From an uncultured Acidobacteriota bacterium (lineage in GTDB: Bacteria; Acidobacteriota; Blastocatellia; Pyrinomonadales; Pyrinomonadaceae), in contig OY970060.1 in the NCBI GenBank assembly GCA_963705225.1, positions 636,501 to 668,500 of the forward strand: DNA of 32,000 nt. Direction: 5' to 3'. A program made the position numbers and the translations under genes. Shown here piece after piece: positions 3,059 to 19,855 of this stretch. How positions within the stretch are numbered: the first letter of the stretch is position 1; each line of letters starts with the position of its first letter. The notes under the pieces are model-generated. The model made no database searches, had not been told where the DNA came from, and worked only from the letters and a program-made list of their open reading frames with translations.

Positions 3059-3070
3059 GATAAGCGTTCT

Positions 3071-3125
3071 AAGTCACGCCTTCGGGCGGCTCTTCGTTCA
3101 GAGTTCAAGCTTTAGCTTGTCTTAA
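3071..3125. repeat. REP-C element
   Basis: The sequence aagtcacgccttcgggcggctcttcgttcagagttcaagctttagcttgtctta shares the core cggcggct(t)cttcgttcagagttcaa with 3831-3882 and 8401-8452. It shares the gagttcaagctttagcttgtctta arm with 24244-24310. Confidence 0.8.
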
Positions 3126-3136
3126 TACTATTGCAG

Positions 3137-3640
3137 TTATTTAGGGCAAGGAGGTGTACTGCTCCATTCCGTCCCTGAATTTTTATACCCGGGGCCGAGC
3201 GGGCCTGCCGTCACGACATTATAATCGCGGTCAACCGCTACCGAATGAATATATGGTTGAAAAGCGTTAGGATTTGTTACGCCTATGACACCCCGCCACA
3301 TCTCTGTGCCGGTCGCGCCGGAGACTTTAACTACCGACCTGTTCCAGGCGGCTACCACGAATACGTCACCATTAGAATCTATTGCCAGATCTTCAATGGG
3401 ATCGGAAAAGGCCCCGAAACGCCAGATCACACTTCCATCCGCTTTAGACATTTTGACCACTTCGGACCCGTTGATACTTCCGATCGCAATGATATCTCCG
3501 GCAGCATCTACGACAACGGCTTCCGCTCTGCTGCCGCAGCCGTTACAGGGAGATATTATCCGTTCCCATGCCAAAGCATCAGACGGCAAAAAAGACAAAT
3601 TGCATAGTACTAGAAAAAAGAGGATTTTTGGCTTACTCAT
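3137..3640 (-). CDS. Small secreted beta-propeller-repeat protein (hypothetical)
   Basis: The 167-aa ORF has a signal peptide, MSKPKILFFLVLCNLSFLPSDALA. It then has three similar ~40-aa repeats (DAAGDIIAIGS..., DSNGDVFVVAA..., VDRDYNVVTAG...) resembling PQQ/SBBP-type propeller blades. The protein is too short to form a full propeller. Confidence 0.6.
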   Translation of the reverse strand: MSKPKILFFLVLCNLSFLPSDALAWERIISPCNGCGSRAEAVVVDAAGDIIAIGSINGSEVVKMSKADGSVIWRFGAFSDPIEDLAIDSNGDVFVVAAWNRSVVKVSGATGTEMWRGVIGVTNPNAFQPYIHSVAVDRDYNVVTAGPLGPGYKNSGTEWSSTPPCPK

Positions 3641-3780
3641 TGTAGGTTCTCCTTGAAGAATATGGGAAAAGTAAGGAGCTATCCATCACCGTCGCTAATC
3701 GGGTAATACCAGGCTCCCGAAAAATTAACCGTTTATTATTGGGGAACTCAATATATACCCTTACAACAGTGATGTAAAGA

Positions 3781-3828
3781 GTTTGTGAGCGCAGCGGCAC
3801 GCCAAAAAGCCGATTTGAGATAGGATAA
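3781..3828 (+). pseudogene. Relic 3' end (last 15 codons plus stop) of an ArsR-type regulator paralogous to 7765..8397
   Basis: The fragment gtttgtgagcgcagcggcacgccaaaaagccgatttgagataggataa translates to VCERSGTPKSRFEIG*. The intact gene ends VCDRTGAPKCRFEIG* (8350-8397). By hand count, 44 of 51 nucleotides are identical. An in-frame TAA lies 6 nt upstream (3775-3777), so only the tail survives. Confidence 0.75.
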
Positions 3829-3830
3829 GT

Positions 3831-3882
3831 TAAGCCCCGTCCTTCAGGCGGCTTCTTCGTTCAGAGTTCAAATCTCAGCAGG
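3831..3882. repeat. REP-C element
   Basis: The sequence taagccccgtccttcaggcggcttcttcgttcagagttcaaatctcagcagg has the same core and orientation as 3071-3125 and 8401-8452. Confidence 0.8.
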
Positions 3883-4064
3883 CCGACCTTCCGCGCGCCG
3901 CCAGACCGAATAAAGTTCGTAAATAACAGCTGCCAGTGAGCGGTTTCTATTTTAACTTTTCTTTTTGGTAATTTCTGTATATAATTCCACCGCTCCTACA
4001 ACTATTTAATGTTTTAACACTCTGTTCGCCGCCTTGTCTGCGAACTCCCATAAAGTATAAATAT

Positions 4065-7000
4065 ATGAGCGAAACTGCCCACAAATTAGTTAAAGGCGTT
4101 AAAAGTGTAGGAGATTTTCTTGGCGATGCATTCGATGCTTTTAAGGATAGCAAGTTTATTGAAACAATCGAAAAAGCTTCTCCATGGCTCGGGCTGGTTG
4201 GTGAGGCCGGGGCCGAAGCACTTCCCCCTCTTAAATTTGTCACTAAAATCGCCAATGAATTCTTAAAAGAAACTGATCCTGAAAAAATAGGTTTTACCGC
4301 GTGTACTATCGCTTTTCAAAACTCAGTAGTAACTGCATTTAAGAAGATCGGCGGCCCGGCCGGGGAAAAGCAAGCGATCAAAAAAGCCAAAGAACAACTA
4401 AAAGAAGTTGAAAATTTTGATGAGGTCGATGTAGGGACACTTAAACTCGATAATGCTTTAAATCATGAATTTTATATAAAGTCCCTTCTGTGCTTTGAAG
4501 TTGCTGCCAAAAATGTCGGATATGTCGATAGCCAGGTTGAAGATCTAACCTTAATAATTCAGGAAAATTTCATCCATTCTCTTATAAAACTTCTATCTGA
4601 CGGCTCTGATAAAGATAAATTCCGGTCGTTTAAGGACTATCTGAAATTAGGCGGTCCGGAAGAAAAAAATGTCAGAAAGATGTTGGCGCAGCACGCCAAC
4701 TACCAAAGATGGTTGTTCGAGCAGGAGGCGGTGCTAAAAGTTTCGCCCTTTGCCTTAAAGCACATTTACGTCGATACCGACTGCAAGAAAACGACCTGGG
4801 GCGAGATGGACGGCTCCCGTGACAAACGGGCGGGTTTTCTTAGTGATGATCGCGCGGATCGGGAGCCGCTGCTGGAAACGGTCATCGACTTGATAAAATC
4901 TCCGGATCTGAAAGACGCCATCATCATTCAGGGCACCGCGGGTTCCGGCAAATCTTCGTTCACTCTAAAACTTTACGATGAATTATTAGAGCGCCGGCTG
5001 CATCCGATCCGTGTGCGGATCAAAGACCTTAGCTTCAGTTCCACGCTCGATATCAGGGACGACCTGCCGAAATCCATCAGATTCGGAGAAGGAGAAGATT
5101 CTAAGGATGAGCGATTGGACGAGAAAACTTTATTTTTGGACGGCCGGATTTTCGATGAACGAGGCGTGGGTGAATTTTCGCATATCAGCAAATACGTGAT
5201 CATTTTGGACGGCTGGGATGAAATCAATCTTTCCAACGAAGGGTTTAAGAATAAAGTTGCGCGAATGCTAAACCAGATCAATGACAGCTTCCTGCGCCGC
5301 GCTAACCCTCGTGTCCGCGTGATCCTGACCGGACGGCCGTCGAGCGATCTTGGCGATACCCAATGTCTCCGCGCTAATTCCCCTTTCCTGAATATTCCCC
5401 GGCTTACCCCCGAACAGCTGCGAAGCTATATTGCGGGTCTGAGAAACGCGGTCAATGCAAAGAAACCACCGATCCCGCGCACCGAATTAACGGAAAGTTG
5501 GATAGTTCCGGACGACGAGCGCTTCGAACCGATGATCAGGCAGTACGAAAAGGCGTTTGACAACCAGGGACAAAACGAATCGAGCGCGCTGGATATTTTA
5601 GGGCTTCCCTTGCTTGCCCATTTGACCGTTCGCCTGGTCGCCGAGTGGGAAGGCGATCTGACGCCGCTGCTGGAAAACCCAACCACGCTGTATCGGCACC
5701 TGATCGATCTGACCTGTAAGGAAGCCGGAAAAGTAGGTGACGAGAGTCAGGGTCAATATAAGATATACGGAGAATCGCTCAGGAGCCTGCTCTGGCAAAC
5801 CGCGCACGCGATCACCTTATCCGGCAGCGAAAACATCTCGCGTCTGGAATTGATCTCGCGCCTTAATATGGAAGACGGTGTTTTCGACAAAACCCTCACC
5901 GAACTGGAAAAGGAAAATAAACTATCTTCGCTGCTGATCAGTTTTTATTTTAAGGGCGGGCTTTCCCACCTCGGCTGTGAATTTGCTCATAAATCTTTCC
6001 GCGAATATCTTTTTGCTGAGGCGGTAATAGAGGCTTTAAAAAAGTACGGCCGGGATCAAAAGACCGTGCTGCCGCCGCGAGCAAACTACTGGGAAGATTT
6101 TCCGGAAACGATACAGAACGATTACAGGTTCCGGCTTTCCCGTGAGCTTGCAATGCTGCTCTCCCCGCAGTGGATAGTGCCGGAAGTGGCAAATCATTTG
6201 CGGCAGCTGATCAAATGGGAAATCGGGCGCACCCTCAACCCGGAGAAAGCAAAACAGCCGGGCATGCCAACCGCCGCCCTGACCCTGGAAGAATGGGGCC
6301 ATATCAGAAACGGGCTGACCGACCTGTGGGAATGGTGGGGCGAGGGCGTTCATTTGCGTCCGCAAAGGTCCCGGAATCAGTACACGGGCGCGGTCGAATT
6401 AGGAGACATTGCCTATGTCAATAACCTGATAAGGTGGAGCGCCCCGCGCGATGAGCGTATCCAGAACTGGGCGCCCGCCAGAACTGCGGCGGTGGACGCG
6501 CATCTGGGAGACGGGCTATTCCTGCTTTGCACCGCGGTTTACGCCGAAATGACATTTACCGATGCGGAAGAAAAGCTTAGGGAAATGGAATCAAAGCCCT
6601 ATCGATCTGTCAGGGAGGTAACCGGCAAGATAATTCTTTCCTTTAAACCATCGGGCGAGCATAGGGGTTATTTCCAAAATTATTCCCATAGAATAAACGG
6701 TGCCGGCTGGAGGCCGGACGGACAGTTCCCTCGTAAGTGTCATATAAAATTTACTGATTTTGAGTGGTGCAATTTATATTTAAGCTGCTTTGACCATACA
6801 CAGGCAGGTCATGCCCGCTTTCGAAATGCCATCGCCGGTAATGCCTCTTTTTGGAAATCAGACTTAGAAAGCGCTGATTTTCAAGGCGCAAGTTTGTTAT
6901 ACACTGACTTTTTAGCGAGTAATCTCTGGAATGGGAATTTCGTTAATACCGATCTTGATTATACAAATTTAAGAGAGGTAACAATTCTTAATGCAAACTT

Positions 7001-7175
7001 TGAAGGATCGAGGTGGGAGCAAGTCAGACTTGAAGATGCAGAAATAGACTTTACGGTAACGAAGGTGGACGGTTTCGAAAGTTCCGTATTCGATTCAGTC
7101 CGTTTCAATGGACAAAGCATGTCACGAGAAAAACTCTTTAAACAACTGGAAGAACAGGAAGAAAACCCGGATTAA
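4065..7175 (+). CDS. NACHT-type STAND NTPase with an unassigned N-terminal helical domain and a C-terminal pentapeptide-repeat domain
   Basis: This is a 1036-aa ORF. Walker A is IIIQGTAGSGKSSF (nt 4932-4955 encode GTAGSGKS). Walker B is KYVIILDGWDEI (nt 5196-5222). NACHT-typical downstream motifs are RVILTGRPS, LGLPLLAHL and HKSFREYLFAEA (compare FxHxSFQEFLAA in NLRs). The C-terminus, from about nt 6765-7055, contains A(D/N)LxX-type pentapeptide repeats such as ADFQGASLLYTDFLASNLWNGNFVNTDLDYTNLREVTILNANFEGSRW. I could not assign aa 1-285 to any domain. Confidence 0.85.
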   Translation: MSETAHKLVKGVKSVGDFLGDAFDAFKDSKFIETIEKASPWLGLVGEAGAEALPPLKFVTKIANEFLKETDPEKIGFTACTIAFQNSVVTAFKKIGGPAGEKQAIKKAKEQLKEVENFDEVDVGTLKLDNALNHEFYIKSLLCFEVAAKNVGYVDSQVEDLTLIIQENFIHSLIKLLSDGSDKDKFRSFKDYLKLGGPEEKNVRKMLAQHANYQRWLFEQEAVLKVSPFALKHIYVDTDCKKTTWGEMDGSRDKRAGFLSDDRADREPLLETVIDLIKSPDLKDAIIIQGTAGSGKSSFTLKLYDELLERRLHPIRVRIKDLSFSSTLDIRDDLPKSIRFGEGEDSKDERLDEKTLFLDGRIFDERGVGEFSHISKYVIILDGWDEINLSNEGFKNKVARMLNQINDSFLRRANPRVRVILTGRPSSDLGDTQCLRANSPFLNIPRLTPEQLRSYIAGLRNAVNAKKPPIPRTELTESWIVPDDERFEPMIRQYEKAFDNQGQNESSALDILGLPLLAHLTVRLVAEWEGDLTPLLENPTTLYRHLIDLTCKEAGKVGDESQGQYKIYGESLRSLLWQTAHAITLSGSENISRLELISRLNMEDGVFDKTLTELEKENKLSSLLISFYFKGGLSHLGCEFAHKSFREYLFAEAVIEALKKYGRDQKTVLPPRANYWEDFPETIQNDYRFRLSRELAMLLSPQWIVPEVANHLRQLIKWEIGRTLNPEKAKQPGMPTAALTLEEWGHIRNGLTDLWEWWGEGVHLRPQRSRNQYTGAVELGDIAYVNNLIRWSAPRDERIQNWAPARTAAVDAHLGDGLFLLCTAVYAEMTFTDAEEKLREMESKPYRSVREVTGKIILSFKPSGEHRGYFQNYSHRINGAGWRPDGQFPRKCHIKFTDFEWCNLYLSCFDHTQAGHARFRNAIAGNASFWKSDLESADFQGASLLYTDFLASNLWNGNFVNTDLDYTNLREVTILNANFEGSRWEQVRLEDAEIDFTVTKVDGFESSVFDSVRFNGQSMSREKLFKQLEEQEENPD

Positions 7176-7764: not shown

Positions 7765-8397
7765 ATGAAGAGAACCAAAATAGACAACCGCTTTTTTGAG
7801 AGTACCCGGGGAAAGATCGTGCTTCTTTTGCGCATTTCCGACCGGACGGTGGATGATCTGTCGAAAGAAACGGGTGTCACGGACAATGCCGTCCGCGCCA
7901 GTCTGCTCTCGCTCGAACGCGACGGGCTGGTTTTTCAAAACGGATCGGTAAAAGGCCATCGAAAGCCGCATTTTATTTATGCTCTGACCCGCGAAGCCGA
8001 AAGCTTGTTTCCGAAGCCCTTCGATGCCCTGTTCACGAATACCGTGGGGGTTTTGAAGAATAGCTTTTCGTCAAAAAAAGTCGAGCAGATCCTGCGGCAG
8101 ATAGGAGTTCAGATCGGCGGAAAATATTCGGCCGGCGCCGGCAGGTCGGGCAGGTCTGTTGGGGCTCGCCTGGAAACGGCGGTCAGGGCGTTAAACGATC
8201 TCGGCGGAACGGCAGCTGTTTCACAAAATGGAAAGACCGTGATTCGCGGAAAAAATTGTCCGCTGGCGGCGGCGGTCGTCACCCATCCCGAGGTCTGCAA
8301 ACTGGCGGAATCCCTGGTAAGCGAGATCGTCCATTCCAAGGTCACCGAAGTTTGCGACCGCACCGGCGCGCCAAAATGCCGGTTCGAGATAGGATAA
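7765..8397 (+). CDS. ArsR-family (COG2345-like) winged-helix transcriptional regulator
   Basis: This is a 210-aa ORF. The N-terminal wHTH region is TRGKIVLLLRISDRTVDDLSKETGVTDNAVRASLLSLERDGLV. The C-terminal domain is Cys-containing (CPLAAAVVTHPEVCKLAESL...VCDRTGAPKCRFEI), as in the predicted ArsR-type regulators of COG2345. Confidence 0.75.
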   Translation: MKRTKIDNRFFESTRGKIVLLLRISDRTVDDLSKETGVTDNAVRASLLSLERDGLVFQNGSVKGHRKPHFIYALTREAESLFPKPFDALFTNTVGVLKNSFSSKKVEQILRQIGVQIGGKYSAGAGRSGRSVGARLETAVRALNDLGGTAAVSQNGKTVIRGKNCPLAAAVVTHPEVCKLAESLVSEIVHSKVTEVCDRTGAPKCRFEIG

Positions 8398-8400
8398 GTT

Positions 8401-8452
8401 TTGAGTCCCGCTTTCAGGCGGCTTCTTCGTTAAGTTCGAACTTTAACCCGCC
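8401..8452. repeat. REP-C element
   Basis: The sequence ttgagtcccgctttcaggcggcttcttcgttaagttcgaactttaacccgcc follows the regulator stop codon directly. It mirrors the layout at 3829-3882. Confidence 0.75.
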
Positions 8453-8540: not shown

Positions 8541-8568
8541 TTGACGAATGAGAAATCTCTTGTATCAT
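8541..8568 (+). promoter_or_regulatory. Sigma70-like promoter candidate for the 744-aa gene
   Basis: TTGACG (8541-8546) is followed by a 16-nt spacer and TATCAT (8563-8568). This is followed by AGGAG (8618-8622), 5 nt before the ATG at 8628. Confidence 0.4.
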
Positions 8569-8627
8569 TTCCGGGTAAGTATTAAATCCTAATTCCCATA
8601 TTCTTTGTTAAATGCCAGGAGTCCCAT

Positions 8628-10862
8628 ATGCCTAAGAAAGTTAGAATGGAAGGCAGGTACGTCACAGCACAAGATGTTTCGGACCGTCTGATGCCTGATC
8701 TGGATGTCAATGAGGTCTTGTTATGGCCTCCCGATCTTTTTGCCTATACCAGTTACTTAATGACCAAGACCTCGGCTTACCAACTGGTGGTTTCGCCGCC
8801 CACGGGTAAATCATGGCCTCCGAAAACGAAAGAATTGCGGGAGTGGTTGTTTACCGATCCTCCAACGCCAATGAAGGCCGAGTCGAAATGGGACTACTGG
8901 GCTAAATACGGATTAAAAGAATGGAGTTCAGACAACAAGTTCCCGGTTGAGAAAAAAATCGGCGAAATAAAGAATCGGATTTCCTGCAGCGGCGAGTGGA
9001 AGAATTGGGTTCAAAAAGTGGGAAGCAAATGGCGCCGCGCACTCGGAAAGCTAAAGGAAGAAGATTTTCAGGTGATCGATTTAAATAGCTCTGAAAACCT
9101 AAAACGGGATACGCGCGGGCGAAAGAAAATTAAAGACTTGCTTAGAGAGCGCCACGGGAAATTATTGGAAATAGTTTTTAAAGCCACCCCACCCGAAGTA
9201 CTGGCTTGCTGGGCGTTTTTTTATCGAGAGGTTATGCGAAAGAATTTTCACAACAATTCCCGGCTGCGCATTTCGGAATTGTTGTGTAATCAGGATGAGA
9301 TTCAAACAAATGCCGCTCATTGTGAAAGACTCTGGAAAGTGTCACAAGTGCTTTTAACCATGCACGCGATCTCCGACACGGCCAGTGTAAGATTTGATAT
9401 CACCGATTCCGATTCTGAAAACGACCTTGCCACGAAATTTGCCCGGGAACTATTGTTCGGGCGGGATAAAGGCTTTTTCACGGATACAAAATTCAATTCC
9501 GGAGGAAGTTTTTCGACCTTTCATACCGATCGGGTCCGGGTCCTGCCTAAACGGCATAATCCCAACGTAGGCATAACACTGCGCTCGATCTCGAGCAATT
9601 TGGCGTTTAATCAATCCTCAGTCGATGTGGTTTGGCGAAAAACCGTCGATAACCCCCTGGGCAATAGACTTATGCCGCCAAAAACGATTAAAAAAGAAGA
9701 CAAGGAAAACTTTGGAAAAGGTATAAAAATGTCGATGCTGATACTTCCTTTTCCATTAATTGTAAAAACGAATGATTTCCGAATAGATTCTGAAAGTAAA
9801 AATGTCAAAATGAATGATGATTACGGTTTTTTCACTTATGATCCGGATCATACTTTTCAGGAACGACACAAAGAAATCGCTTCAAGTCGCGAAGTCCTGA
9901 AGGCTTTGAAATTGATCAGAAGAGCTAATGAGGAACTTGCCGGCGAAGCGCAAACCGACATGGTTATTTTTCCGGAAGCCGCGCTGAGCGTCACTCAATT
10001 CAACGGCCTGCAGACGGCGCTTCTTAATCCGTTGAATAGTTTTGAGAAATTGAAGGGTGTCTACACCACGCCGCCCAGCATAATCGTTGCCGGAGTAAGA
10101 GAATCCCGGGATGATCTAAAAAAAGAACGAGAAAAAGTAAATCAAGACACGGAAGTAACCTTTCCCCGTAACGCGGTATACTGTCAATACTACGACGCAA
10201 AAAAACATTCATACTTTGTCGAGGCCGATCCCAAAGATAACGACACTCCGACGAACATAAATAAATCGTATAGAACGCCCAAGTTCAAACAATATAAACA
10301 TCATCGCTGGCAGTTGAACGAACGCCAGGTCAAACGTTACGGATTGACCAGCGTATTGGATCCTAAAAAAATATGGTGGGAATCCATCAAAATACCTAAA
10401 CGCAGGGTAAGTTTTCTCAACGTGGGGAAAGTTATCACGATCTCGCATTTGATCTGCGAAGATCTTGCCCGTCTCGATCCTATTTCTGAGCTGATCAGGC
10501 ATGTGGGGCCTACCCTGGTGATCGCAATACTAATGGACGGTCCGCAGGTGAGAAGCCGTTGGTCTGCCCGGTACGCGACGGTTCTGGCGGATGACCCCGG
10601 TTCCTCAGTTATTACTTTAACTTCAATAGGAATGGTCAACCGCGATCATTCGCCTTACGGCTCTTTGTCCCGGGTTGTCGCCTTATGGAATGAAAGCCAT
10701 AGCACGGAGACGCGGGAAATAGAACTCGCGCCGGGGGCGGAGGCGGTCCTGCTTAACCTGGAGATTGACAAACGTTCCGAAAGAACGGCCGACGGGAGAA
10801 AAGAAACAGCGCCGACCGCGATACTTAAGTTGGTCGATGTAATACAAATTTACCCTGACTAA
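8628..10862 (+). CDS. Large orphan protein: novel N-terminal half plus C-terminal nitrilase-superfamily (CN-hydrolase)-like domain
   Basis: This is a 744-aa ORF with a good SD. The C-terminal ~370 aa carry, in the canonical order, MVIFPEAAL (Glu450, nt 9975-9977), QYKHHRWQL (Lys557, nt 10296-10298) and ISHLICEDLARL (Cys610, nt 10455-10457). These are followed by GPTLVIAILMDGP...RYATVLADDPGSSVITLTSIGMV, which resembles the terminal strands of the CN-hydrolase fold. The Glu-to-Lys and Lys-to-Cys spacings are longer than I recall for canonical nitrilases, which suggests insertions. I could not assign aa 1-370. Confidence 0.7.
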   Translation: MPKKVRMEGRYVTAQDVSDRLMPDLDVNEVLLWPPDLFAYTSYLMTKTSAYQLVVSPPTGKSWPPKTKELREWLFTDPPTPMKAESKWDYWAKYGLKEWSSDNKFPVEKKIGEIKNRISCSGEWKNWVQKVGSKWRRALGKLKEEDFQVIDLNSSENLKRDTRGRKKIKDLLRERHGKLLEIVFKATPPEVLACWAFFYREVMRKNFHNNSRLRISELLCNQDEIQTNAAHCERLWKVSQVLLTMHAISDTASVRFDITDSDSENDLATKFARELLFGRDKGFFTDTKFNSGGSFSTFHTDRVRVLPKRHNPNVGITLRSISSNLAFNQSSVDVVWRKTVDNPLGNRLMPPKTIKKEDKENFGKGIKMSMLILPFPLIVKTNDFRIDSESKNVKMNDDYGFFTYDPDHTFQERHKEIASSREVLKALKLIRRANEELAGEAQTDMVIFPEAALSVTQFNGLQTALLNPLNSFEKLKGVYTTPPSIIVAGVRESRDDLKKEREKVNQDTEVTFPRNAVYCQYYDAKKHSYFVEADPKDNDTPTNINKSYRTPKFKQYKHHRWQLNERQVKRYGLTSVLDPKKIWWESIKIPKRRVSFLNVGKVITISHLICEDLARLDPISELIRHVGPTLVIAILMDGPQVRSRWSARYATVLADDPGSSVITLTSIGMVNRDHSPYGSLSRVVALWNESHSTETREIELAPGAEAVLLNLEIDKRSERTADGRKETAPTAILKLVDVIQIYPD

Positions 10863-10892
10863 GACCGTCCGGGTATCTCACGTAAATTTCCG

Positions 10893-10915
10893 CCTTAGCC
10901 TTTTCAAGGCTAAGG
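10893..10915. terminator. Hairpin between convergent genes (possible bidirectional terminator)
   Basis: The hairpin is ccttagcc-ttttcaa-ggctaagg (8-bp stem). It is nested inside an outer cgtccgg/ccggacg pair (10866-10872 and 10918-10924). The U-tract is weak. Confidence 0.35.
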
Positions 10916-10955
10916 TTCCGGACGTTCATCATTATGTCGATACCCGCGCCCCGGC

Positions 10956-11648
10956 TTACCGCGAAAATTCCGCGACGGTCTTGGGAAATTCCTGTAACTC
11001 TTCCGGGGCGGCGGACCACGGCGTGACGGAATCGATCAGCAAACCTTTAGCGGATTTTTTATAGATCGAAGTGTTCATGTCGTTGTCCTGCGAGATGATC
11101 GCGCCTTTGAGCGAGACCCCGGCGAACAGCCCCTGCGTGCGCGAGTAGGTCAAAATTCCCGCGTCGAGCGTGGCATTGGTCGAAGCAGCCGCCGCGCGTC
11201 CGACCGGGCCGGCGGCAACGCTGGCTTCCCCGCCCATTTCAAATTTGTCTTCGAGCAGCCCCTTCAAACCCGAATCGTTTCTGACCACCAAAATATAGTC
11301 GATCTTCTGCCCGCCGATCTGCGCTCCAAAACTCGCCCCGGTAATATTTAAAAACGCCGGCGCCGACCAGGTTCCGTCGGCCAGTTTGCGCACGACCACG
11401 CCCTTGCCGCCCTGTCCGCCGAAGATGAACGCGCCCTTCAGCACGCCGGGAAACACGACCACAGCCCAGGCATTTTTTAAGATTTCGCGCGGGATCGCCC
11501 TGTCGTCGATCCGCATCACTTCGCGCATCACTTCCGAAGCGCTATTAACCCGCGCCTGAGCTTTCGTTAATTCGGATCTCTGCGCAAAAACGCTAACACC
11601 CGTGACTGCCACAACTAACATCAACAAAAATAATTTCGATAATTTCAT
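10956..11648 (-). CDS. SYLF (Ysc84/DUF500) domain lipid-binding protein, secreted
   Basis: The signal peptide is MKLSKLFLLMLVVAVTGVSVFA. SYLF-type blocks are GGKGVVVRKLADGTWSAPAFLNITGASFGAQIGG and FEMGGEASVAAGPVGRAA...LTYSRTQGLFAGVSLKGA. I prefer the ATG at 11648 because GGAG lies 7 nt upstream. The track ORF begins at 11678. Confidence 0.8.
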   Translation of the reverse strand: MKLSKLFLLMLVVAVTGVSVFAQRSELTKAQARVNSASEVMREVMRIDDRAIPREILKNAWAVVVFPGVLKGAFIFGGQGGKGVVVRKLADGTWSAPAFLNITGASFGAQIGGQKIDYILVVRNDSGLKGLLEDKFEMGGEASVAAGPVGRAAAASTNATLDAGILTYSRTQGLFAGVSLKGAIISQDNDMNTSIYKKSAKGLLIDSVTPWSAAPEELQEFPKTVAEFSR

Positions 11649-11721
11649 GGTAAAACTCCTTGATACAAATTCGAACACAATTTGCTTTCAGGATTAATTA
11701 TACAATTCGCGTGCCACTGAT

Positions 11722-11911
11722 GGGTAATTGGGGATTGGGGATTGGAGAATGGTGATGGGTGATTGGTAATTGGTAATAGGTAATAGGTTGTGGGTTCGGA
11801 TTTGTTCGTGTCGTTTCGTGTATTTTCGTGGTTAATCCTTAAGGCCTTTTCTTAATGGCTATAAAAGTTGAAACCACACATGAAAAACCTATTACCAATT
11901 ACCTATTACCC
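11722..11911. repeat. Low-complexity GGTAATTGG-type tract plus REP-F, closed by an inverted arm
   Basis: The tract gggtaattggggattggggattgg...ggtaattggtaataggtaatagg spans 11722-11789. Its arm is inverted as cctattaccaattacctattaccc (11888-11911). Between them, ggttcggatttgttcgtgtcgtttcgtg (from 11793) is the reverse complement of cacgaatgacacgagcaaatccgaacc at 16457-16483. A related ggtaattggtaat tract lies at 13162-13198. Confidence 0.75.
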
Positions 11912-11921
11912 GTCTCAAGTA

Positions 11922-12368
11922 CTAGTGATTGCGGTCGTAATCGATGCCGCGCTGGGCTTCGTCGATCGCGTCGTTGACCAGTTTTAGAGCGGCGGCGCGA
12001 TGCCCGCCTTTATCGGCGGTGGCTTTTTCCAGATTTTCCCGCGCGCTTTTCAGCCAGTCCTTGGCCTTGACCATGTTCGGCTGATCGGAAGCGAAAAACT
12101 CGTTCTCGTCGAAATCGCTTTCATGATTTCGGTCGTATTCGATACCGGCGTTGATCTCGGCGATCGCGCGATTCGTCAGCGAGATCGCGTTGGCTTTGTG
12201 GCCGCCCTTATCCGCCGAAGCGCGGCGGAAAAACCCGAGCGCTTTATTACAGTCGTTGCGCGCCGCCGTCATAAACGGCTGGTCCGCGCCAACCGGCAGC
12301 GTCAGGACGGCGACGCTAAAGACCACCGCCGACACCGCAAAAATACCAAGTAGTTTTTTTCTCATCAA
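11922..12368 (-). CDS. Secreted hypothetical protein with an internal two-fold repeat
   Basis: The 148-aa ORF has a signal peptide. It contains two copies of an ~45-aa module: ADKGGHKANAISLTNRAIAEINAGIEYDRNH and ADKGGHRAAALKLVNDAIDEAQRGIDYDRNH. Confidence 0.7.
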   Translation of the reverse strand: MMRKKLLGIFAVSAVVFSVAVLTLPVGADQPFMTAARNDCNKALGFFRRASADKGGHKANAISLTNRAIAEINAGIEYDRNHESDFDENEFFASDQPNMVKAKDWLKSARENLEKATADKGGHRAAALKLVNDAIDEAQRGIDYDRNH

Positions 12369-12384
12369 TCTTCTCCTCTGTGTT

Positions 12385-13149
12385 TTAATGGACGATCTTA
12401 AATTCTACTTCTCTTGAAACCTTAGGATTTCCGCCCGCATTTTTTAACATCACCAGGTAATTTCCCGTTTGCGGCAGCGCTAAAATACTCATCACATCCA
12501 GCACCTCGCTCGTTTTGCCGGAATCGGCCTCGCCGGGATTTTCTATCTCGTAGTACAGATTTTTATCCGGCAGGTACACGGAAATGCCGCAGCCGTAAGC
12601 CACGATCTCCAGCGCCTGGCCTTTGCGCGCGCTTAGCGAAAAAACTTTCTGCTCGTCGCTGCCGGTAAAAGTAAGATTCATTTTCGAGGAATTTGCGCCC
12701 CTGGCAAATGAGACCGGTTTCGCCGACGCCGCCAGTTTAGCATAGCTCGGCGCGCATGATTCGTAATCGGCAAAACTCAACTGGTATTTACCGGTTTCGT
12801 AATTTTTGCCGTACACCCTGACCTTTAATATTTCCTCGGCGCCTTTTTTCCCGAGCGTCCAGACACCGCCCTTCATTTCCGAAGGCGAAATATCCGGCCA
12901 TTTGCCGCCCGCGAATTTTACCGTCAGCGTATTTCCCGCCGCCGTTCCGGTGAAATCATAATTCGCATCTCCGGCATCACCCGAAACGATGAATGTGCCG
13001 GAAACCTTCGCGCCCGCGATCTTGAAAACTACCCGGTGGCTCTGCTGCAGCCACTCGCTTTTGAAACACTTGTCACCCGACTGCGCGGCGGCCGGCAGCA
13101 GCGTGCCCGACAGCAAGATGGCGGCAATTATCGGAAATAATTTTTTCAT
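12385..13149 (-). CDS. Secreted hypothetical protein
   Basis: The 254-aa ORF has the signal peptide MKKLFPIIAAILLSGTLLPAAAQ and a beta-rich composition. I recognise no family. Confidence 0.7.
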   Translation of the reverse strand: MKKLFPIIAAILLSGTLLPAAAQSGDKCFKSEWLQQSHRVVFKIAGAKVSGTFIVSGDAGDANYDFTGTAAGNTLTVKFAGGKWPDISPSEMKGGVWTLGKKGAEEILKVRVYGKNYETGKYQLSFADYESCAPSYAKLAASAKPVSFARGANSSKMNLTFTGSDEQKVFSLSARKGQALEIVAYGCGISVYLPDKNLYYEIENPGEADSGKTSEVLDVMSILALPQTGNYLVMLKNAGGNPKVSREVEFKIVH

Positions 13150-13210
13150 TGATTTAATGTGCGTAATACGTGATACGTAATTGGTAATTGGTAATACGTT
13201 TTAGCGTGTC

Positions 13211-13325
13211 TTTCCTACTTTCCTCTTCCTGATTTCCCGATTTCCTATCTTTCCTGATTTCCTGATTTCCTCGTTTCCTAATTTCCTTCTTCCCTATCTT
13301 TCCTCATTTCCTCTCTCCCCCTCCT
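13211..13325. repeat. Degenerate 8-nt periodic polypyrimidine tract (TTTCCTNN)n, about 12 copies
   Basis: TTTCC (or TTCCC) starts fall at 13211, 13219, 13233, 13241, 13250, 13258, 13266, 13274, 13282, 13290, 13299 and 13307, so the spacing is mostly 8 nt. The tract overlaps the last codons of CDS 13294..13740 (tail ...GKEGERGNEER). Confidence 0.8.
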
Positions 13326-13740
13326 TCCCCGTTTCTCGTCTTAGCCAGAAATAGAGGATCGGCATCAGCAATATTTCGACTAAAAATGAGCCGATCAATT
13401 CCGGGCCGAACAGCACATCCGGGCGGTTCATCGTCAGCCGGGCCAGGCCGCCCATAAAGATCAGAAAAAAGACCAGGTTCAGGGCCATGTGATATTTGTG
13501 CGGCCTGGTTCCGGCGACCACCAAAAAGAGCCCGATCGCCAGGTAAAGCCCGCCGAAAAATCTGACGTGGCTGTCCTGCACCAAAAAGCCGTGCTCGTCG
13601 ATGATCTCTAAAAATCTGGTCTGCCCCTGCAGCCCCAGCGTCAGCATTCCGCCGAATCCGACATTGATGCCGATCAGGACGTTTACTATTCCCAGCAGCA
13701 CGAGAACGCCTCTCAAAACCCATGAACTGATATTTTCCAT
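13294..13740 (-). CDS. Small integral membrane protein (hypothetical)
   Basis: The 148-aa ORF has four hydrophobic segments. I prefer it over the overlapping Arg-rich frame 13304..13822. Confidence 0.65.
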   Translation of the reverse strand: MENISSWVLRGVLVLLGIVNVLIGINVGFGGMLTLGLQGQTRFLEIIDEHGFLVQDSHVRFFGGLYLAIGLFLVVAGTRPHKYHMALNLVFFLIFMGGLARLTMNRPDVLFGPELIGSFLVEILLMPILYFWLRRETGKEGERGNEER

Positions 13741-13757
13741 TTTGCTTTATCCTTATT

Positions 13758-13955
13758 TTAAGTCCGGTCGTTCGGAGCCTCGGTTGCCGGTTCCGGTTCT
13801 TCCCGATCTTCGTCGTCGTCATCCGGCCTGTAGACTTCGTACCCGGTAGAATCGTCGTAATAGTAATCGCGGTTTTCGATATCGTGCGACCAGTTTGCCT
13901 CGTCGCTTTTTGCGGGAACCGCCGCTTCTTTTACTTTATCGTCCGTTTTTTCCAT
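13758..13955 (-). CDS. Small acidic hypothetical protein
   Basis: The 65-aa ORF is Asp/Glu-rich (YYYDDSTGYEVYRPDDDDEDREEPEP). It ends 17 nt upstream of the next minus-strand gene. Confidence 0.4.
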   Translation of the reverse strand: MEKTDDKVKEAAVPAKSDEANWSHDIENRDYYYDDSTGYEVYRPDDDDEDREEPEPATEAPNDRT

Positions 13956-14068
13956 ATAAGCCCGGTGAATAAAAAACCGGTCGAATAAATTTCCCGGCTT
14001 TCGCGGGGTAGAAAATAGCCTTACAATCTTTCTACTGAGTTTATCTTAATTTTTTCTGGGGAGCATAT

Positions 14069-14926
14069 ATGAAAAGCAATTCATTACTCTTGAATTCCAC
14101 GCTGATCCTGGTCACGGCGGTTTCCACTTATTTTGTCGCGCCGCTGGTCAGCGGCACGGCGACCGCCCAGCAGGCTGCGGCGCAGCAGGCCAAAATAGAT
14201 AATGAGTACCAGGTCGGCGCGGTGCTTTATATGCAGAAAGCGGCGGAGTATCGCGCTTTAACTTACCAGGCGTTCAACTGGGCGAAGGTAACGCTCGACG
14301 CCGACGAAAAAACGAAAAAGAAACTGCCCAAAATTGAAAGAAAGAAAACGCGAGCGGTGGTGGTGGACATCGACGAAACCGTGCTGGATAATTCTCCCGC
14401 GCAGGCGCTCGATATCAGGAATCGGGCCGCTTTTTCTTCGGCCGGCTGGTACGCCTGGGGCGATCTGCGTAAGGCGAAAGCAATTCCCGGCTCGGTCGAT
14501 TTTCTCAATTACGCGATCTCGAAAGGCGTCAAAGTTTTCTTTGTTTCCAATCGCGACGAAGCGCAAAAAGCCGCCACCATGGACAACCTGAAAAACGTCG
14601 GGTTCCAGGGCGTAACGGCCGAAACCGTGCTGCTGCGCCAAAACGGCATTTCGACCAAGACGCCTCGGCGCGACGCCATCGCCAAAGATCACCGCATCGT
14701 GATCCTGATGGGCGACAATCTGGACGATATGTCCGATGTCTTCGAAAAAAGATCCGTCGCCGACCGGTTTGCCGAAACCGACAAAGTGCGCTCTCTCTGG
14801 GGCGGCAAATACATCGTCCTGCCAAACGCAATGTACGGCACCTGGGAAAACGCGATCTACGATCACCAGCGCCTGACCAATGCGCAAAAAGCGGAAAAAC
14901 GTGCAAATTCACTTGAAACGCCGTAA
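14069..14926 (+). CDS. Class C acid phosphatase / 5'-nucleotidase, e(P4)-like HAD family
   Basis: The N-terminus is signal-like. The HAD motifs are AVVVDIDETVLDNSP (DDDD-type motif I), FFVSNRDE and LMGDNLDDM. The upstream block AVLYMQKAAEYRALTYQAFNWAK is typical of the e(P4) family. Confidence 0.85.
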   Translation: MKSNSLLLNSTLILVTAVSTYFVAPLVSGTATAQQAAAQQAKIDNEYQVGAVLYMQKAAEYRALTYQAFNWAKVTLDADEKTKKKLPKIERKKTRAVVVDIDETVLDNSPAQALDIRNRAAFSSAGWYAWGDLRKAKAIPGSVDFLNYAISKGVKVFFVSNRDEAQKAATMDNLKNVGFQGVTAETVLLRQNGISTKTPRRDAIAKDHRIVILMGDNLDDMSDVFEKRSVADRFAETDKVRSLWGGKYIVLPNAMYGTWENAIYDHQRLTNAQKAEKRANSLETP

Positions 14927-14929
14927 AAT

Positions 14930-15136
14930 ATGCCTATGAGAAGCACTCTTGAAGAAAAACTTTTAAATCCGCGGCCCGGCAGTAAAGTCGCCGCCGCGAA
15001 AGAATTCGGGATCGACCTTACTCTACTCTTGGGAAACCTGCGGCTTACTCCGCAAGAAAGAATAGATCAGCTGCAGGAAGTGATGCGAGCTCATCATCAC
15101 ATTCGCGAACAGGCTAAATTGCGATTAAAAAAATAA
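14930..15136 (+). CDS. Small hypothetical protein
   Basis: The 68-aa ORF starts 4 nt after the phosphatase stop. Its sequence is ...AAAKEFGIDLTLLLGNLRLTPQERIDQLQEVM..., and I cannot securely recognise a family. Confidence 0.45.
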   Translation: MPMRSTLEEKLLNPRPGSKVAAAKEFGIDLTLLLGNLRLTPQERIDQLQEVMRAHHHIREQAKLRLKK

Positions 15137-15266
15137 AAACACTTAGTAAATTATGGTGGAAATCGAACCTGCCGGAATTGGAAGCCCTGCTCGAGTTAAA
15201 GAACGAAGGCGAAATTTAACTGTATTTGGACTAGCCGATCGATTTTAGTACCCTCCACTAAATCTT

Positions 15267-17131: not shown

Positions 17132-19855
17132 ATGAAAATAAAAACTTTTCCGCTGATAGTTTGCCTGCAACTGCTCCTCGCGTTGTCGTTTTCCTTATTC
17201 GCGCAAGATCTGACGGTCAGGCAGATAATGGCCGATCCTTCGCTGGCCGGGATGCGCCCCGAAGCGGAAAGGCTCTCGCCCGACGGCAAAAAAGTCGTCT
17301 TTATGTGGAACGAAAGCGGCAAAGACCCGAAGAACCTCTATCTCTGGAACGGCATCGGCGATGCAAAGGTAATTCTGCGCCCGTCCGACCTCGGGCCGTC
17401 CGCAGCGGGAGGGGACGGCGGACGCGTCGGAAATCCGCTTAGTTACGGCGTCACCGTGCGCGATGAATTCAGCCGACGCGGCGCGGGCGGCATCGGTAAT
17501 CTCGACTGGTCGCCCGATTCGAAAAAGATACTTTTTAGCCAGAGCGGCGATCTCTGGGTGATGGATATCACCAATAATGAATCCGCGTCCGAAGACAATG
17601 TTTTGCGAAATTGGAAGAACGTCGAAACCACGCTTATCCGGCTGACCGATCTGGTGCCGGTGCTGGTCAATGCCGTAAAGCAGGCCGGAGTGCAGGAACC
17701 CGATATCTTTCTAAAAATCGCCGATCTGCGCTCCAAACTTTTGTCCTCTCTCCAGGCCGCGGGAGTAAGGACCGCCTCGCAGCGGCAGGACATCCTGCGA
17801 ACCGGGCAGGCTCTCGCCTCCGCCGCCGGGTCGCTGGTAAAACTGGACGAAAAATATCCGGCGTTAAGATCTAACCAATTATTCAAGGCTTCCTCGGACG
17901 AGGTTCAGGGAGTGTCCAACCGGATCACGGCTGTCAGGTCCGATTTTGACTCCGTGTTAAAAGCGGCGTCTCCGAATATCAAGCGCCTGACCAAAACCCA
18001 GTCGCCGGAAGTTTTCGCCCGCTGGCTGGACAACCGCCGCATAGCTTTTTCGCAGAGCGGAAATATTTTTGTGATCGATACCGAAGGCTTTTCCCTGATC
18101 CAGCTGACCCGCGAAGCCAACCCGGCTGCCTTCATCAGCGTGCAAAATTCCGTCGCCAGTAAAGATGGCAGCGTGATGGCCTACGTCGTCTCCGACAGTT
18201 CGAAACAGCGCCCGCTGGTGGTGCCGAATTACCTGGATGAATTCGTTCAGGCGCAGCCCACGCGGCGCGGTTTCAGCACCGATCAAAAAGTTTTCGTCAC
18301 CAAAACCGACGGCAGCACCGAACGCGTCTTCGAGATCAAACTTCCCAAGCCCGAAGGCGTCGGTTACGTTCGCGGGCTCGACTGGGCCGCCGACAACAGC
18401 AGCCTGATCGTCGACCGCATCGACAAAGACCTGAAACATCGCCAGCTTTTTTATGTCTTTCACGCCGGCGGCAAAGACGAGCAGATAATCACCATCACGG
18501 ACGAGACCGATGACAAATGGATCGCGCCGCTTTCGCGTATGGTCGAGCCGAATCCGAAAGACAACGGTACACTGATGTTCGCTTCGGAAAAAGACGGCTT
18601 TAATCATCTCTACCTGGCGACGCTGCCCCGGCGCGCCGCCGAACCCAATCCGACCGGCGAGCGGCGGCAGGAAAATGTGTCCGATCCCGGTTTTACCGGC
18701 GCGGTAAAGATCGAGCAGCTGACGAAAGGAAACTTCGAGGTCGATTGGGCGAAATGGCAGAGCGACGGTGAAGCCGTCTTTTATTCTTCGACCGAAGACA
18801 GCCCCGCGATCCGGGAATTTTACGCGATCTATCCCGGGCGAAACGCTCAAAAAGTAAGGATCAATACCGCCGCCGGCGGAATGAAGGGCTCCGCCCAGAT
18901 CGCCGACACCGGCGCCAATCCGATGATGCTCTATAGCGGTTCGCAATGGAACAAACCGACCGAGCTTTTTATCGTAAAAATTTGCCCGAATTGCCGCGGC
19001 ATGTCCTATCCGGACCGGGTCACAAATTCGACGCCGGAAGCTTTCGGCAAAATGACCTGGCTCGAACCGAAATTTATCGACATTCCGAGCAAGGACGGCA
19101 AGGTCATCAAGTCCAAGATCTACCTGCCGCCGGGACATACTCCTGCCAGCGCGGGTAAATATCCGATGGTTATTTTCGTGCACGGCGCGGGCTACCTGCA
19201 AAACACCATCAACGGCTGGAATAATTATTACCGCGAGTTCATGTTCAATGAAATGCTGGCGCAAAAAGGCTACGTCGTTTTAGACATCGACTATCGCGGC
19301 TCCGCCGGTTACGGGCGCGACTGGCGCACCGACGTTTATGATTTTCTCGGCGGGCCCGACATGCAGGATCACGTCGATGCGATAGATTTCATGGTCAAAA
19401 ATTATGGGGTCGAGCAGAAAAAGATCGGCGTATACGGCGGCAGCTACGGCGGTTTTATGGCTGAGATGCTGGCCATGCGCGCGCCTGACAAAATAGCGGC
19501 GGCGGCGGCGCTGCGCCCGGTGGCGGACTGGAAAAATTATTTCGCGTCCTCGCCGATCTACACCGCCGAACGCCTGGGCTTTCCCGACAAAAACCCCGAA
19601 GCCTACAAACGCAGCTCGCCGATCGCCTACGCCGACAAGCTGGAACGCCCGCTGCTGATCCTGCACGGGCTGCAGGACGACAACGTCCACGCGCAGGATT
19701 CGATCCAGCTGGCGGAGAAACTCATCCGCCTCGGCAAGACCGAATATTTCGAAATAATGCTCTACCCGGCGGAAAGCCACAGCTTTACCCGCCCCGAAAG
19801 CTGGACCGACGAATATACGAGAATATTGACCTTTTTTGAAAAACACCTAAAATGA
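17132..19855 (+). CDS. S9 family serine peptidase (DPP-IV/acylaminoacyl-peptidase type) with an inserted LemA-like helical module
   Basis: The 907-aa ORF has a signal peptide. The propeller-type N-terminal region contains repeated SPDGKK/SPDSKK-type blade motifs. The catalytic domain has the nucleophile motif GVYGGSYGGFMA, the Asp motif LILHGLQDDNV and the His motif ESHSF. The insertion at about nt 17596-17999 matches LemA motifs (see findings). Confidence 0.9.
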   Translation: MKIKTFPLIVCLQLLLALSFSLFAQDLTVRQIMADPSLAGMRPEAERLSPDGKKVVFMWNESGKDPKNLYLWNGIGDAKVILRPSDLGPSAAGGDGGRVGNPLSYGVTVRDEFSRRGAGGIGNLDWSPDSKKILFSQSGDLWVMDITNNESASEDNVLRNWKNVETTLIRLTDLVPVLVNAVKQAGVQEPDIFLKIADLRSKLLSSLQAAGVRTASQRQDILRTGQALASAAGSLVKLDEKYPALRSNQLFKASSDEVQGVSNRITAVRSDFDSVLKAASPNIKRLTKTQSPEVFARWLDNRRIAFSQSGNIFVIDTEGFSLIQLTREANPAAFISVQNSVASKDGSVMAYVVSDSSKQRPLVVPNYLDEFVQAQPTRRGFSTDQKVFVTKTDGSTERVFEIKLPKPEGVGYVRGLDWAADNSSLIVDRIDKDLKHRQLFYVFHAGGKDEQIITITDETDDKWIAPLSRMVEPNPKDNGTLMFASEKDGFNHLYLATLPRRAAEPNPTGERRQENVSDPGFTGAVKIEQLTKGNFEVDWAKWQSDGEAVFYSSTEDSPAIREFYAIYPGRNAQKVRINTAAGGMKGSAQIADTGANPMMLYSGSQWNKPTELFIVKICPNCRGMSYPDRVTNSTPEAFGKMTWLEPKFIDIPSKDGKVIKSKIYLPPGHTPASAGKYPMVIFVHGAGYLQNTINGWNNYYREFMFNEMLAQKGYVVLDIDYRGSAGYGRDWRTDVYDFLGGPDMQDHVDAIDFMVKNYGVEQKKIGVYGGSYGGFMAEMLAMRAPDKIAAAAALRPVADWKNYFASSPIYTAERLGFPDKNPEAYKRSSPIAYADKLERPLLILHGLQDDNVHAQDSIQLAEKLIRLGKTEYFEIMLYPAESHSFTRPESWTDEYTRILTFFEKHLK

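Follow-up and report, generated by a model that had tools for sequence, protein, structure and literature searches.

A 744-residue protein of an uncultured Acidobacteriota bacterium probably represents a large and very divergent branch of the nitrilase superfamily

The described systems closest to the protein reported here carry catalytic domains of the nitrilase superfamily, which was reportedly split into 13 branches by Pace and Brenner in 2001. They comprise the small-molecule amidases, such as the omega-amidase YafV/Nit2, the formamidase AmiF, beta-ureidopropionase and N-carbamoylputrescine amidase; the apolipoprotein N-acyltransferase Lnt, in which an N-terminal eight-helix membrane domain is joined to a periplasmic catalytic domain; and the eukaryotic families Nta1 and vanin/biotinidase, in which the nitrilase fold is combined with extra domains and larger substrates are used. 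In addition, DRT1 and UG5 are large multidomain anti-phage proteins of the reverse transcriptase–nitrilase type, which link a nitrilase-type domain whose catalytic centre is intact to a non-enzymatic helical region, and DRT1 illustrates that such domains can serve as immune effectors with substrates still to be identified (PMC13275509). Here, we analysed a stretch of 32,000 nucleotides (nt) from an uncultured Acidobacteriota bacterium of the family Pyrinomonadaceae (contig OY970060.1, positions 636,501 to 668,500; hereafter the window), in which an open reading frame (ORF) on the plus strand at 8628–10862, from an ATG start to a TAA stop codon counted in, encodes a protein of 744 amino acids (aa), exactly as the original prediction, made from the sequence alone, had claimed. 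The evidence from structure prediction and profile alignment suggests that this protein is probably a member of a large nitrilase-superfamily branch that is very divergent and had escaped annotation, and that it is likely a stand-alone cytoplasmic thiol enzyme of the nitrilase type, predicted to be active.

The original prediction had read the C-terminal half of the protein as nitrilase-like, and had placed Glu450 in the motif MVIFPEAAL, Lys557 in QYKHHRWQL and Cys610 in HLICEDLARL, precisely where these residues are found. A full-length model generated by AlphaFold2 from an alignment of 46 homologues had a predicted local distance difference test score (pLDDT) of 86.5 and a predicted template modelling score (pTM) of 0.90. 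Comparing this model with the Protein Data Bank (PDB) by Foldseek returned 49 matches at E<=0.001, all of which were nitrilase-superfamily enzymes at a probability of 1.0, with target-normalised TM-scores mostly of 0.3–0.57. The small-molecule amidases gave the best matches, and those obtained included formamidase, Nit2, Nit3, beta-ureidopropionase, N-carbamoylputrescine amidase, vanin-1, Nta1 (5hyy), NitFhit and the glutaminase domain of NAD synthetase; the sole viral structural match was a cyanophage carbon–nitrogen hydrolase (CN-hydrolase). The matches thus placed the model in the alpha-beta-beta-alpha sandwich fold of the CN-hydrolases, and they support a predicted nitrilase-like fold for residues ~366–744 (9723–10859, plus strand), a core that was delimited by Foldseek, hhalign and a sub-threshold match to Pfam PF00795 and that has inserts at about residues 460–485, 520–553 and 566–592.

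The correspondence of the catalytic residues was assayed by profile–profile alignment. As a homologue search seeded with Escherichia coli YafV retrieved close enterobacterial orthologues only, too shallow for a profile, and the fetched loci were nearly devoid of canonical CN-hydrolases, the reference profile was built with PDB sequences and combined YafV and its enterobacterial orthologues, the Lnt catalytic domain and five PDB nitrilase sequences. Aligned to it by hhalign over 206 colinear columns (E=1.7e-5), the C-terminal profile of the family paired E450 with E42, K557 with K107, C610 with C141 and D612 with D143 (YafV numbering), so that the C-x-[D/E] following the nucleophile is in common with the small-molecule amidases, as are the order of the Glu, Lys and Cys motifs and their local surroundings. 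The YafV positions E42, K107 and C141 were invariant across all reference enzymes, and E450, K557, E585 and C610 showed no variation in about 230 family sequences. Glu450 (codon 9975–9977; invariant in 229/229), the predicted catalytic general base, lies in the model strand 445–454; Lys557 (10296–10298; 230/230), the predicted catalytic lysine, lies just past a strand; and Cys610 (10455–10457; 229/229), the predicted nucleophile, lies at the junction of strand 603–609 and helix 610–613, which fits a nucleophile elbow. The spacings of 107 aa from Glu to Lys and of 53 aa from Lys to Cys, both given correctly in the original prediction, exceed the 65 and 34 of E. coli YafV, and the insertions that it deduced from them, ~40 and ~20 extra residues respectively, are therefore real. 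These alignments support the predicted assignment of Glu450, Lys557 and Cys610 to the catalytic triad.

Upstream of the core, the first ~370 residues had been described as matching nothing recognisable, which was borne out for one part and revised for another. Residues 1–277 (8628–9458, plus strand) form an all-helical domain according to the DSSP assignment on the models, with helices spanning residues 14–277 and with W33, P35, F38, Y51, W63, W135, H246 and D250 conserved. When modelled alone, this N-terminal helical part was still confident (pLDDT mostly above 90), and its fold was unrecognised, since Foldseek found no PDB match for it (best E=0.54, probability 0.07, TM about 0.1) and no viral protein structure resembling it. 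Residues 279–345 (9462–9662, plus strand), in contrast, constitute a beta-rich extension that carries a conserved basic motif, R302-x-R304-xx-P307-K308-R309-H310...G315-x-T317-x-R319-S320 (9531–9587), in which K308 (224/225 sequences), G315 (225/225) and R319 (224/226) are all but invariant. The pLDDT of this extension was 83–93 in the full-length model and fell to 35–60 once the C-terminal domain was omitted, the confidence loss covering the 300–362 segment. Because of this collapse, the segment 279–345 is, in the models, structurally part of the catalytic domain as an extension of it. Supportively, plasmid-borne relatives aligned only from residue ~301 on, and distant members found by an exhaustive search matched from about profile position 200, from which the conserved unit comprises the beta extension, the nitrilase core and the last N-terminal helices with H246 and D250; the first ~200 residues, as judged from these sequences, vary in length across the family. 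No transmembrane-like window (maximum 19-residue Kyte–Doolittle mean 1.33) and no signal peptide were detected in the protein, and the earlier claim that it lacks a transmembrane segment thus holds.

These features suggest a mechanism in which Cys610 would attack the carbon–nitrogen bond of an amide, carbamoyl or nitrile group, with Glu450 acting as the base and with Lys557, and probably Glu585, stabilising the intermediate. The acyl-Cys610 thioester so formed would be resolved by water, as in an amidase, or, less likely, by an acceptor amine in an acyl transfer such as that of Lnt. The 65-residue beta extension with the near-invariant Lys308 and Arg319 would be built into the catalytic domain, the 277-residue helical domain would be docked rigidly on it, and both, together with H558, H559, R592, R624 and R644, would shape the substrate pocket. 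As many of the invariant residues are basic (K308, R319, H558, H559, R592, R624, R644 and R724), this pocket would most likely accept an anionic substrate with a carboxylate or a phosphate group. For the physiological role, a specialised amidase or deamidase is our leading guess, with a toxin-like conflict effector as its chief competitor.

Several results weigh against this interpretation. The match to Pfam PF00795 (CN_hydrolase), a profile comparison that the original prediction had proposed, did appear over aa 422–500, corresponding to profile positions 17–87 and the Glu-motif region, but stayed under the cutoff (E=0.02, 14.6 bits vs 23.2), and a similarly weak match was seen in only 4/46 relatives. 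No meaningful match was obtained with phmmer and profile searches of the PDB sequences, in which Cap4 (E=0.69) was dismissed as noise, and the probability of the hhalign alignment was just 78%. Furthermore, YafV E116, the canonical second catalytic Glu, aligned with a non-conserved position; the candidate for this role, Glu585 (codon 10380–10382; 229/229) in the sequence WWE, lies 28 residues past Lys557 inside an insertion that hhalign left unaligned, and its equivalence is thus putative. The sequence also fits hydrolase and acyltransferase chemistry alike, and the shaping of the substrate site by the basic motif and the helical domain is deduced from conservation and model confidence only. 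The sub-threshold Pfam and PDB sequence searches, together with a single-sequence hhalign to YafV that was not significant, would be expected if the Glu-Lys-Cys likeness were a chance motif in a protein that is not of the nitrilase type. However, this explanation is effectively refuted by the 49 structural matches falling without exception in one superfamily, by the colinear profile alignment pairing all three catalytic residues, and by the invariance of the triad in about 230 sequences at 30–50% overall identity. Membership is therefore assigned at the level of the superfamily and fold, not at that of the PF00795 sequence family.

Comparison with the known enzymes further defines the position of the protein. 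It shares the predicted fold of the small-molecule amidases and a residue-for-residue triad pairing with YafV, whereas its identity to them is about 10% and below the Pfam threshold, its second catalytic Glu is off the aligned position, and it is almost three times their size, adding the basic-motif beta extension and the 277-residue helical domain. With Lnt it has in common a nitrilase-type catalytic domain preceded by a large N-terminal helical region, and the Lnt catalytic domain is part of the profile to which the triad was aligned. The resemblance to Lnt that the original prediction had noted stands at the level of the Lys motif (K-H-H here vs K-N-H-L in Lnt), but does not extend to transmembrane helices, and the protein has neither hydrophobic segments nor a signal peptide and matches no NCBIfam Lnt model; lacking the membrane domain, it is not Lnt. 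Nta1 and vanin/biotinidase likewise carry extra domains and both families are represented in the structural matches, whereas the extra domains differ in kind and placement from those here and sequence similarity is not detectable. Unlike DRT1 and UG5, the protein contains no reverse-transcriptase (RT) domain by Pfam and has no PADLOC match, and is for these reasons not of the DRT1/UG5 type; RT families were not among the commonest Pfam families in the genes flanking its relatives.

The structural matches to Nta1 and vanin raise the question of whether the target is a macromolecule. The protein could be a protein or peptide modifier, either an Asn/Gln side-chain or N-terminal deamidase like Nta1 or an N-acyltransferase like Lnt, whose helical domain and basic motif recognise a macromolecular target. 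More than 40 residues besides the triad are invariant, some of them in long stretches of near-complete invariance such as LICEDLARQDP...ILMDGPQ...RW, which exceeds what a pocket for small molecules usually needs, and the small accessory proteins coupled or fused to some relatives (see below) could be partners or substrates. In contrast, gene context points to no target, Nta1 and Lnt are no nearer to the protein than the small-molecule amidases are, and the transmembrane helices that Lnt would need are missing. We regard a role in protein modification as quite improbable, and retain the specialised amidase or deamidase as the preferred role.

The protein had been described as an orphan, which is wrong. 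A word-indexed search retrieved 101 homologues at 30–53% identity, nearly all full length, which were mostly from Pyrinomonadaceae and soil metagenomes and none of which carried precomputed Pfam domains. When 1.84 billion cluster representatives (50% identity clusters) were searched exhaustively with the family profile, 2,251 of them matched at E<=0.001, of which 1,411 reached E<=1e-30. Among 185,579 genomes, each standing for a single species, 354 loci were confirmed, with two copies in some genomes; these are distributed over Acidobacteriota, Planctomycetota, Myxococcota, Actinomycetota, Chloroflexota, Bdellovibrionota, Nitrospirota, Bacteroidota and Gammaproteobacteria. The source names examined for the relatives were uninformative, being "hypothetical protein" or the generic "predicted amidohydrolase", no Pfam, NCBIfam or PADLOC model recognised the family in scans of the protein, its halves and its relatives, and a search of the literature for earlier accounts of the family returned only the RT-nitrilase systems. 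One relative, encoded on OY970352.1 (L019/P0028), is a 1,004-aa paralogue-like protein with 43% identity and a far longer insertion in the N-terminal domain; it is carried by a 4.84-Mb acidobacterial metagenome-assembled genome from sequencing run ERR11593400, the same run as that of the window, and its gene lies between those of an aldehyde dehydrogenase and an M20 peptidase.

The gene neighbourhoods of the homologues were wholly unlike one another. Using ORF calls with a filter on the G+C content at third codon positions (GC3) against spurious antisense ORFs in high-GC loci, no conserved neighbour was found in 80 genome loci, where the top recurring cluster occurred in <=13 loci and at scattered positions; no conserved operon partner, from a housekeeping pathway or otherwise, was found, and most neighbours were not tightly coupled to the family gene. 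No Pfam family occurred more than 4 times among the 137 genes directly flanking family members, and none of the 34 informative metagenome loci that contain a relative of the window's downstream gene carried an adjoining family member. The GC content of the family gene was under that of its flanks in 52/74 loci (mean -3.1 points, Wilcoxon p=3e-7). Relatives were also found on twelve plasmids, with hosts including Deinococcus, Agrobacterium, Rhizobium, Massilia, Cupriavidus, Bradyrhizobium, Vibrio, Sinorhizobium and Methylorubrum, the proteobacterial plasmids carrying shorter relatives; the plasmid relatives had no PADLOC match. These distributions indicate that the gene behaves as a horizontally mobile, stand-alone accessory gene with no fixed partner, as far as can be read from genome sequences.

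Such mobility bears on a different role that the original prediction had considered plausible, that of a single-gene conflict system. The protein might act as the effector in a conflict system, anti-phage or otherwise, in which the helical N-terminal domain restrains a nitrilase-type effector until a trigger arrives, this restraint being provided in other subfamilies by a small coupled partner or a fused C-terminal module, and in which the freed effector destroys an essential amide- or amine-bearing metabolite, as proposed for the DRT1 nitrilase domain. The precedent of nitrilase effectors in DRT1 and UG5 (PMC13275509, PMC13436386) is in line with this, as are the patchy occurrence of the 354 loci over many phyla, at times in two copies, the low GC relative to the flanks, the small coupled ORF or similar fused module of some members, and the NACHT-like STAND protein with pentapeptide repeats that is encoded 1.45 kb upstream in the window. 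Of three plasmid contexts inspected, two showed defence-like neighbours in accessory regions: the Massilia copy is flanked by a mercury transposon and an IS3 element and lies beside a KAP/PifA-like NTPase gene, and the Agrobacterium copy adjoins DpdB/DndB-like, MORC-like ATPase and radical-SAM genes. However, no PADLOC model matches the 744-aa protein; PADLOC matches among the 137 immediate flanking genes, to which the defence survey was directed, were few and generic (cyclases and cysteine desulfurases) and showed no defence enrichment; relatives numbered 0 in 50,697 phage genomes and only 5 among 2.9 million viral contigs; many chromosomal copies are surrounded by ordinary housekeeping genes; the window's gene has no small partner; and the defence-like neighbours amount to anecdotal finds at a few loci. 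Circumstantial signs of an accessory and mobile gene stand, but direct support for a conflict system from PADLOC, the flanks and phage genomes is missing, and we consider a conflict role unlikely, at somewhat better standing than protein modification. The picture is neither that of a pathway component nor that of a proven defence gene, and context settles neither the conflict nor the metabolic role.

In the Agrobacterium sp. S7/73 plasmid locus (L094, regions 4139–6400 and 8559–15152), the gene ahead of the relative, separated from it by 13 nt, encodes a hypothetical protein of 753 aa that weakly matches a GTPase-like P-loop, and downstream on the opposite strand lie clustered genes of the MORC-like ATPase, the radical-SAM protein and two DGQHR (DndB/DpdB-like) proteins.

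Additional modules were found in other family members. In 31–32 of 231 sequences (230 relatives plus the query), the C-terminus is extended by a conserved module of ~230 aa that has no Pfam match. In ~23/90 loci, a small same-strand ORF began within a few nt of the stop codon of the family gene, often overlapping it. Two groups of these small proteins could be aligned with the fused module (E=0.0024 and 0.0046) and with each other (E=0.004), in weak but colinear alignments with two motifs in common; the homology between the small-protein groups is weakly supported overall, at E around 0.002–0.06. Three loci carried the small protein of an acidobacterial group fused to the family ORF. These alignments hint, on weak statistics, at a recurring accessory helical partner that may be either fused or split. 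A homologous relation of the acidobacterial group to the others was not supported (E=0.25–0.69 vs the groups, E=0.61 vs the fused module). The window's gene lacks both the fused C-terminal module and a small downstream partner, and an equivalent of the small protein inside its N-terminal domain was searched for and not found.

The carriers of the fused C-terminal module include the distant members P0158, P0170 (Herpetosiphon) and P0196 and about 29 more. The small downstream proteins are helical and 70–190 aa in length, and an N-terminal motif of the type LSxLxxFAxAVxxxP is common to several of them; they are encoded in loci L048–L050, L054, L065, L067, L070, L072, L073 and L077–L079 and, for other groups, in L026, L029, L031, L034, L036 and L076, in L030 and L068, and in L089 and L090.

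These modules admit a more specific, and somewhat less probable, version of the conflict role. The family could form a new conflict or toxin-like class, in which a nitrilase effector with an unusual basic active-site extension is restrained by a helical regulatory module and, when released, would act by deamidation or cleavage on an anionic metabolite that the cell needs, for example a nucleotide or a cofactor. Three interchangeable forms of the module would exist in this class: an enlarged N-terminal domain, as in the protein of the window; a module fused at the C-terminus; and a small separate protein that is translationally coupled. If this were true, nitrilase-based immunity would gain a second, RT-independent example, and the substrate class of such effectors could be approached through it, and any conflict effector of this family would bear on the open question of DRT1, namely the targets of nitrilase effectors. 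Under the preferred assignment as a specialised amidase or deamidase, defining the family would still annotate thousands of "hypothetical proteins" of soil bacteria. With more than 2,000 50%-identity clusters in at least nine major bacterial lineages, it would be a sizeable nitrilase branch that current annotation has missed, and the conserved catalytic centre combined with a grafted invariant basic motif and a helical domain without structural relatives points to a substrate class that may be new to nitrilases.

The gene itself agrees with most of its original description. Homologue alignments begin at ~residue 5 and run to the end of the protein, which supports the ATG start at 8628, and both N-terminal peptides that had been quoted are found in the translation. 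A Shine–Dalgarno-like AGGAG is located 6 nt ahead of the ATG, at 8617–8621 on the plus strand, consistent with the good ribosome-binding site that had been noted. The promoter-like TTGACG-16-TATCAT is located at 8541–8568 (plus strand), with 10/12 matches to the sigma-70 consensus; it is a candidate only, because such sites are no commoner in the region than in shuffled sequence (4 found vs 3.5 expected). Monocistronic expression, also proposed originally, is plausible from the arrangement of the genes, because a 230-nt gap containing a terminator-like hairpin separates the gene from the ArsR-type helix-turn-helix gene upstream (7765–8397) and because the downstream neighbour, a Ysc84 family gene 93 nt off, is convergent. 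The AT-richness reported before was reproduced, with 24/60 G+C positions in 9301–9360 and a G+C content of 46.1% for the gene vs 51.7% for the remaining window, and the distance to the NACHT gene, given as about 1.5 kb, is 1,452 nt from the end of that gene.

The NACHT-like gene at 4065–7175 (plus strand) encodes a protein of 1,036 aa whose centre is P-loop/NACHT-like (Pfam NACHT at 23.5 bits, slightly under the cutoff of 26.7) and whose C-terminus carries clear pentapeptide repeats; it has weak matches to NCBIfam DS8_antiphage, PADLOC mad8 and PDC-S20, and its 5' part is AT-rich, windows over the first ~900 nt (3501–5000) being at 42–43% GC. A direct repeat of about 85–110 nt, 87–95% identical, occurs at 3780–3864 and 8349–8434, with a partial third copy at about 3060–3110, and encloses a 4.57-kb segment with the NACHT-like and ArsR-like genes and a gene of 133 aa; the gene of the 744-aa protein falls just beyond this segment. 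The repeat consists of the final ~50 nt of the ArsR-like gene and its terminator hairpin, and the upstream copy retains a relic reading frame (VCERSGTPKSRFEIG* vs VCDRTGAPKCRFEIG*, the asterisks marking stops). The repeat may mark an insertion or a segmental duplication. The hairpin of the repeat recurs alone after a MatE gene. At 17132–19855 (plus strand), a 907-aa protein is encoded that matches WD40-like PD40 at its N-terminus, LemA, the N-terminal region of dipeptidyl-peptidase IV and prolyl-oligopeptidase S9, in which the LemA fusion is unusual. Finally, an inverted repeat at 11754–11914, with arms of 25–28 nt that are 84–92% complementary and about 100 nt apart, is built of short repeats of the GGTAAT(T/A) type and is intergenic between two minus-strand genes.

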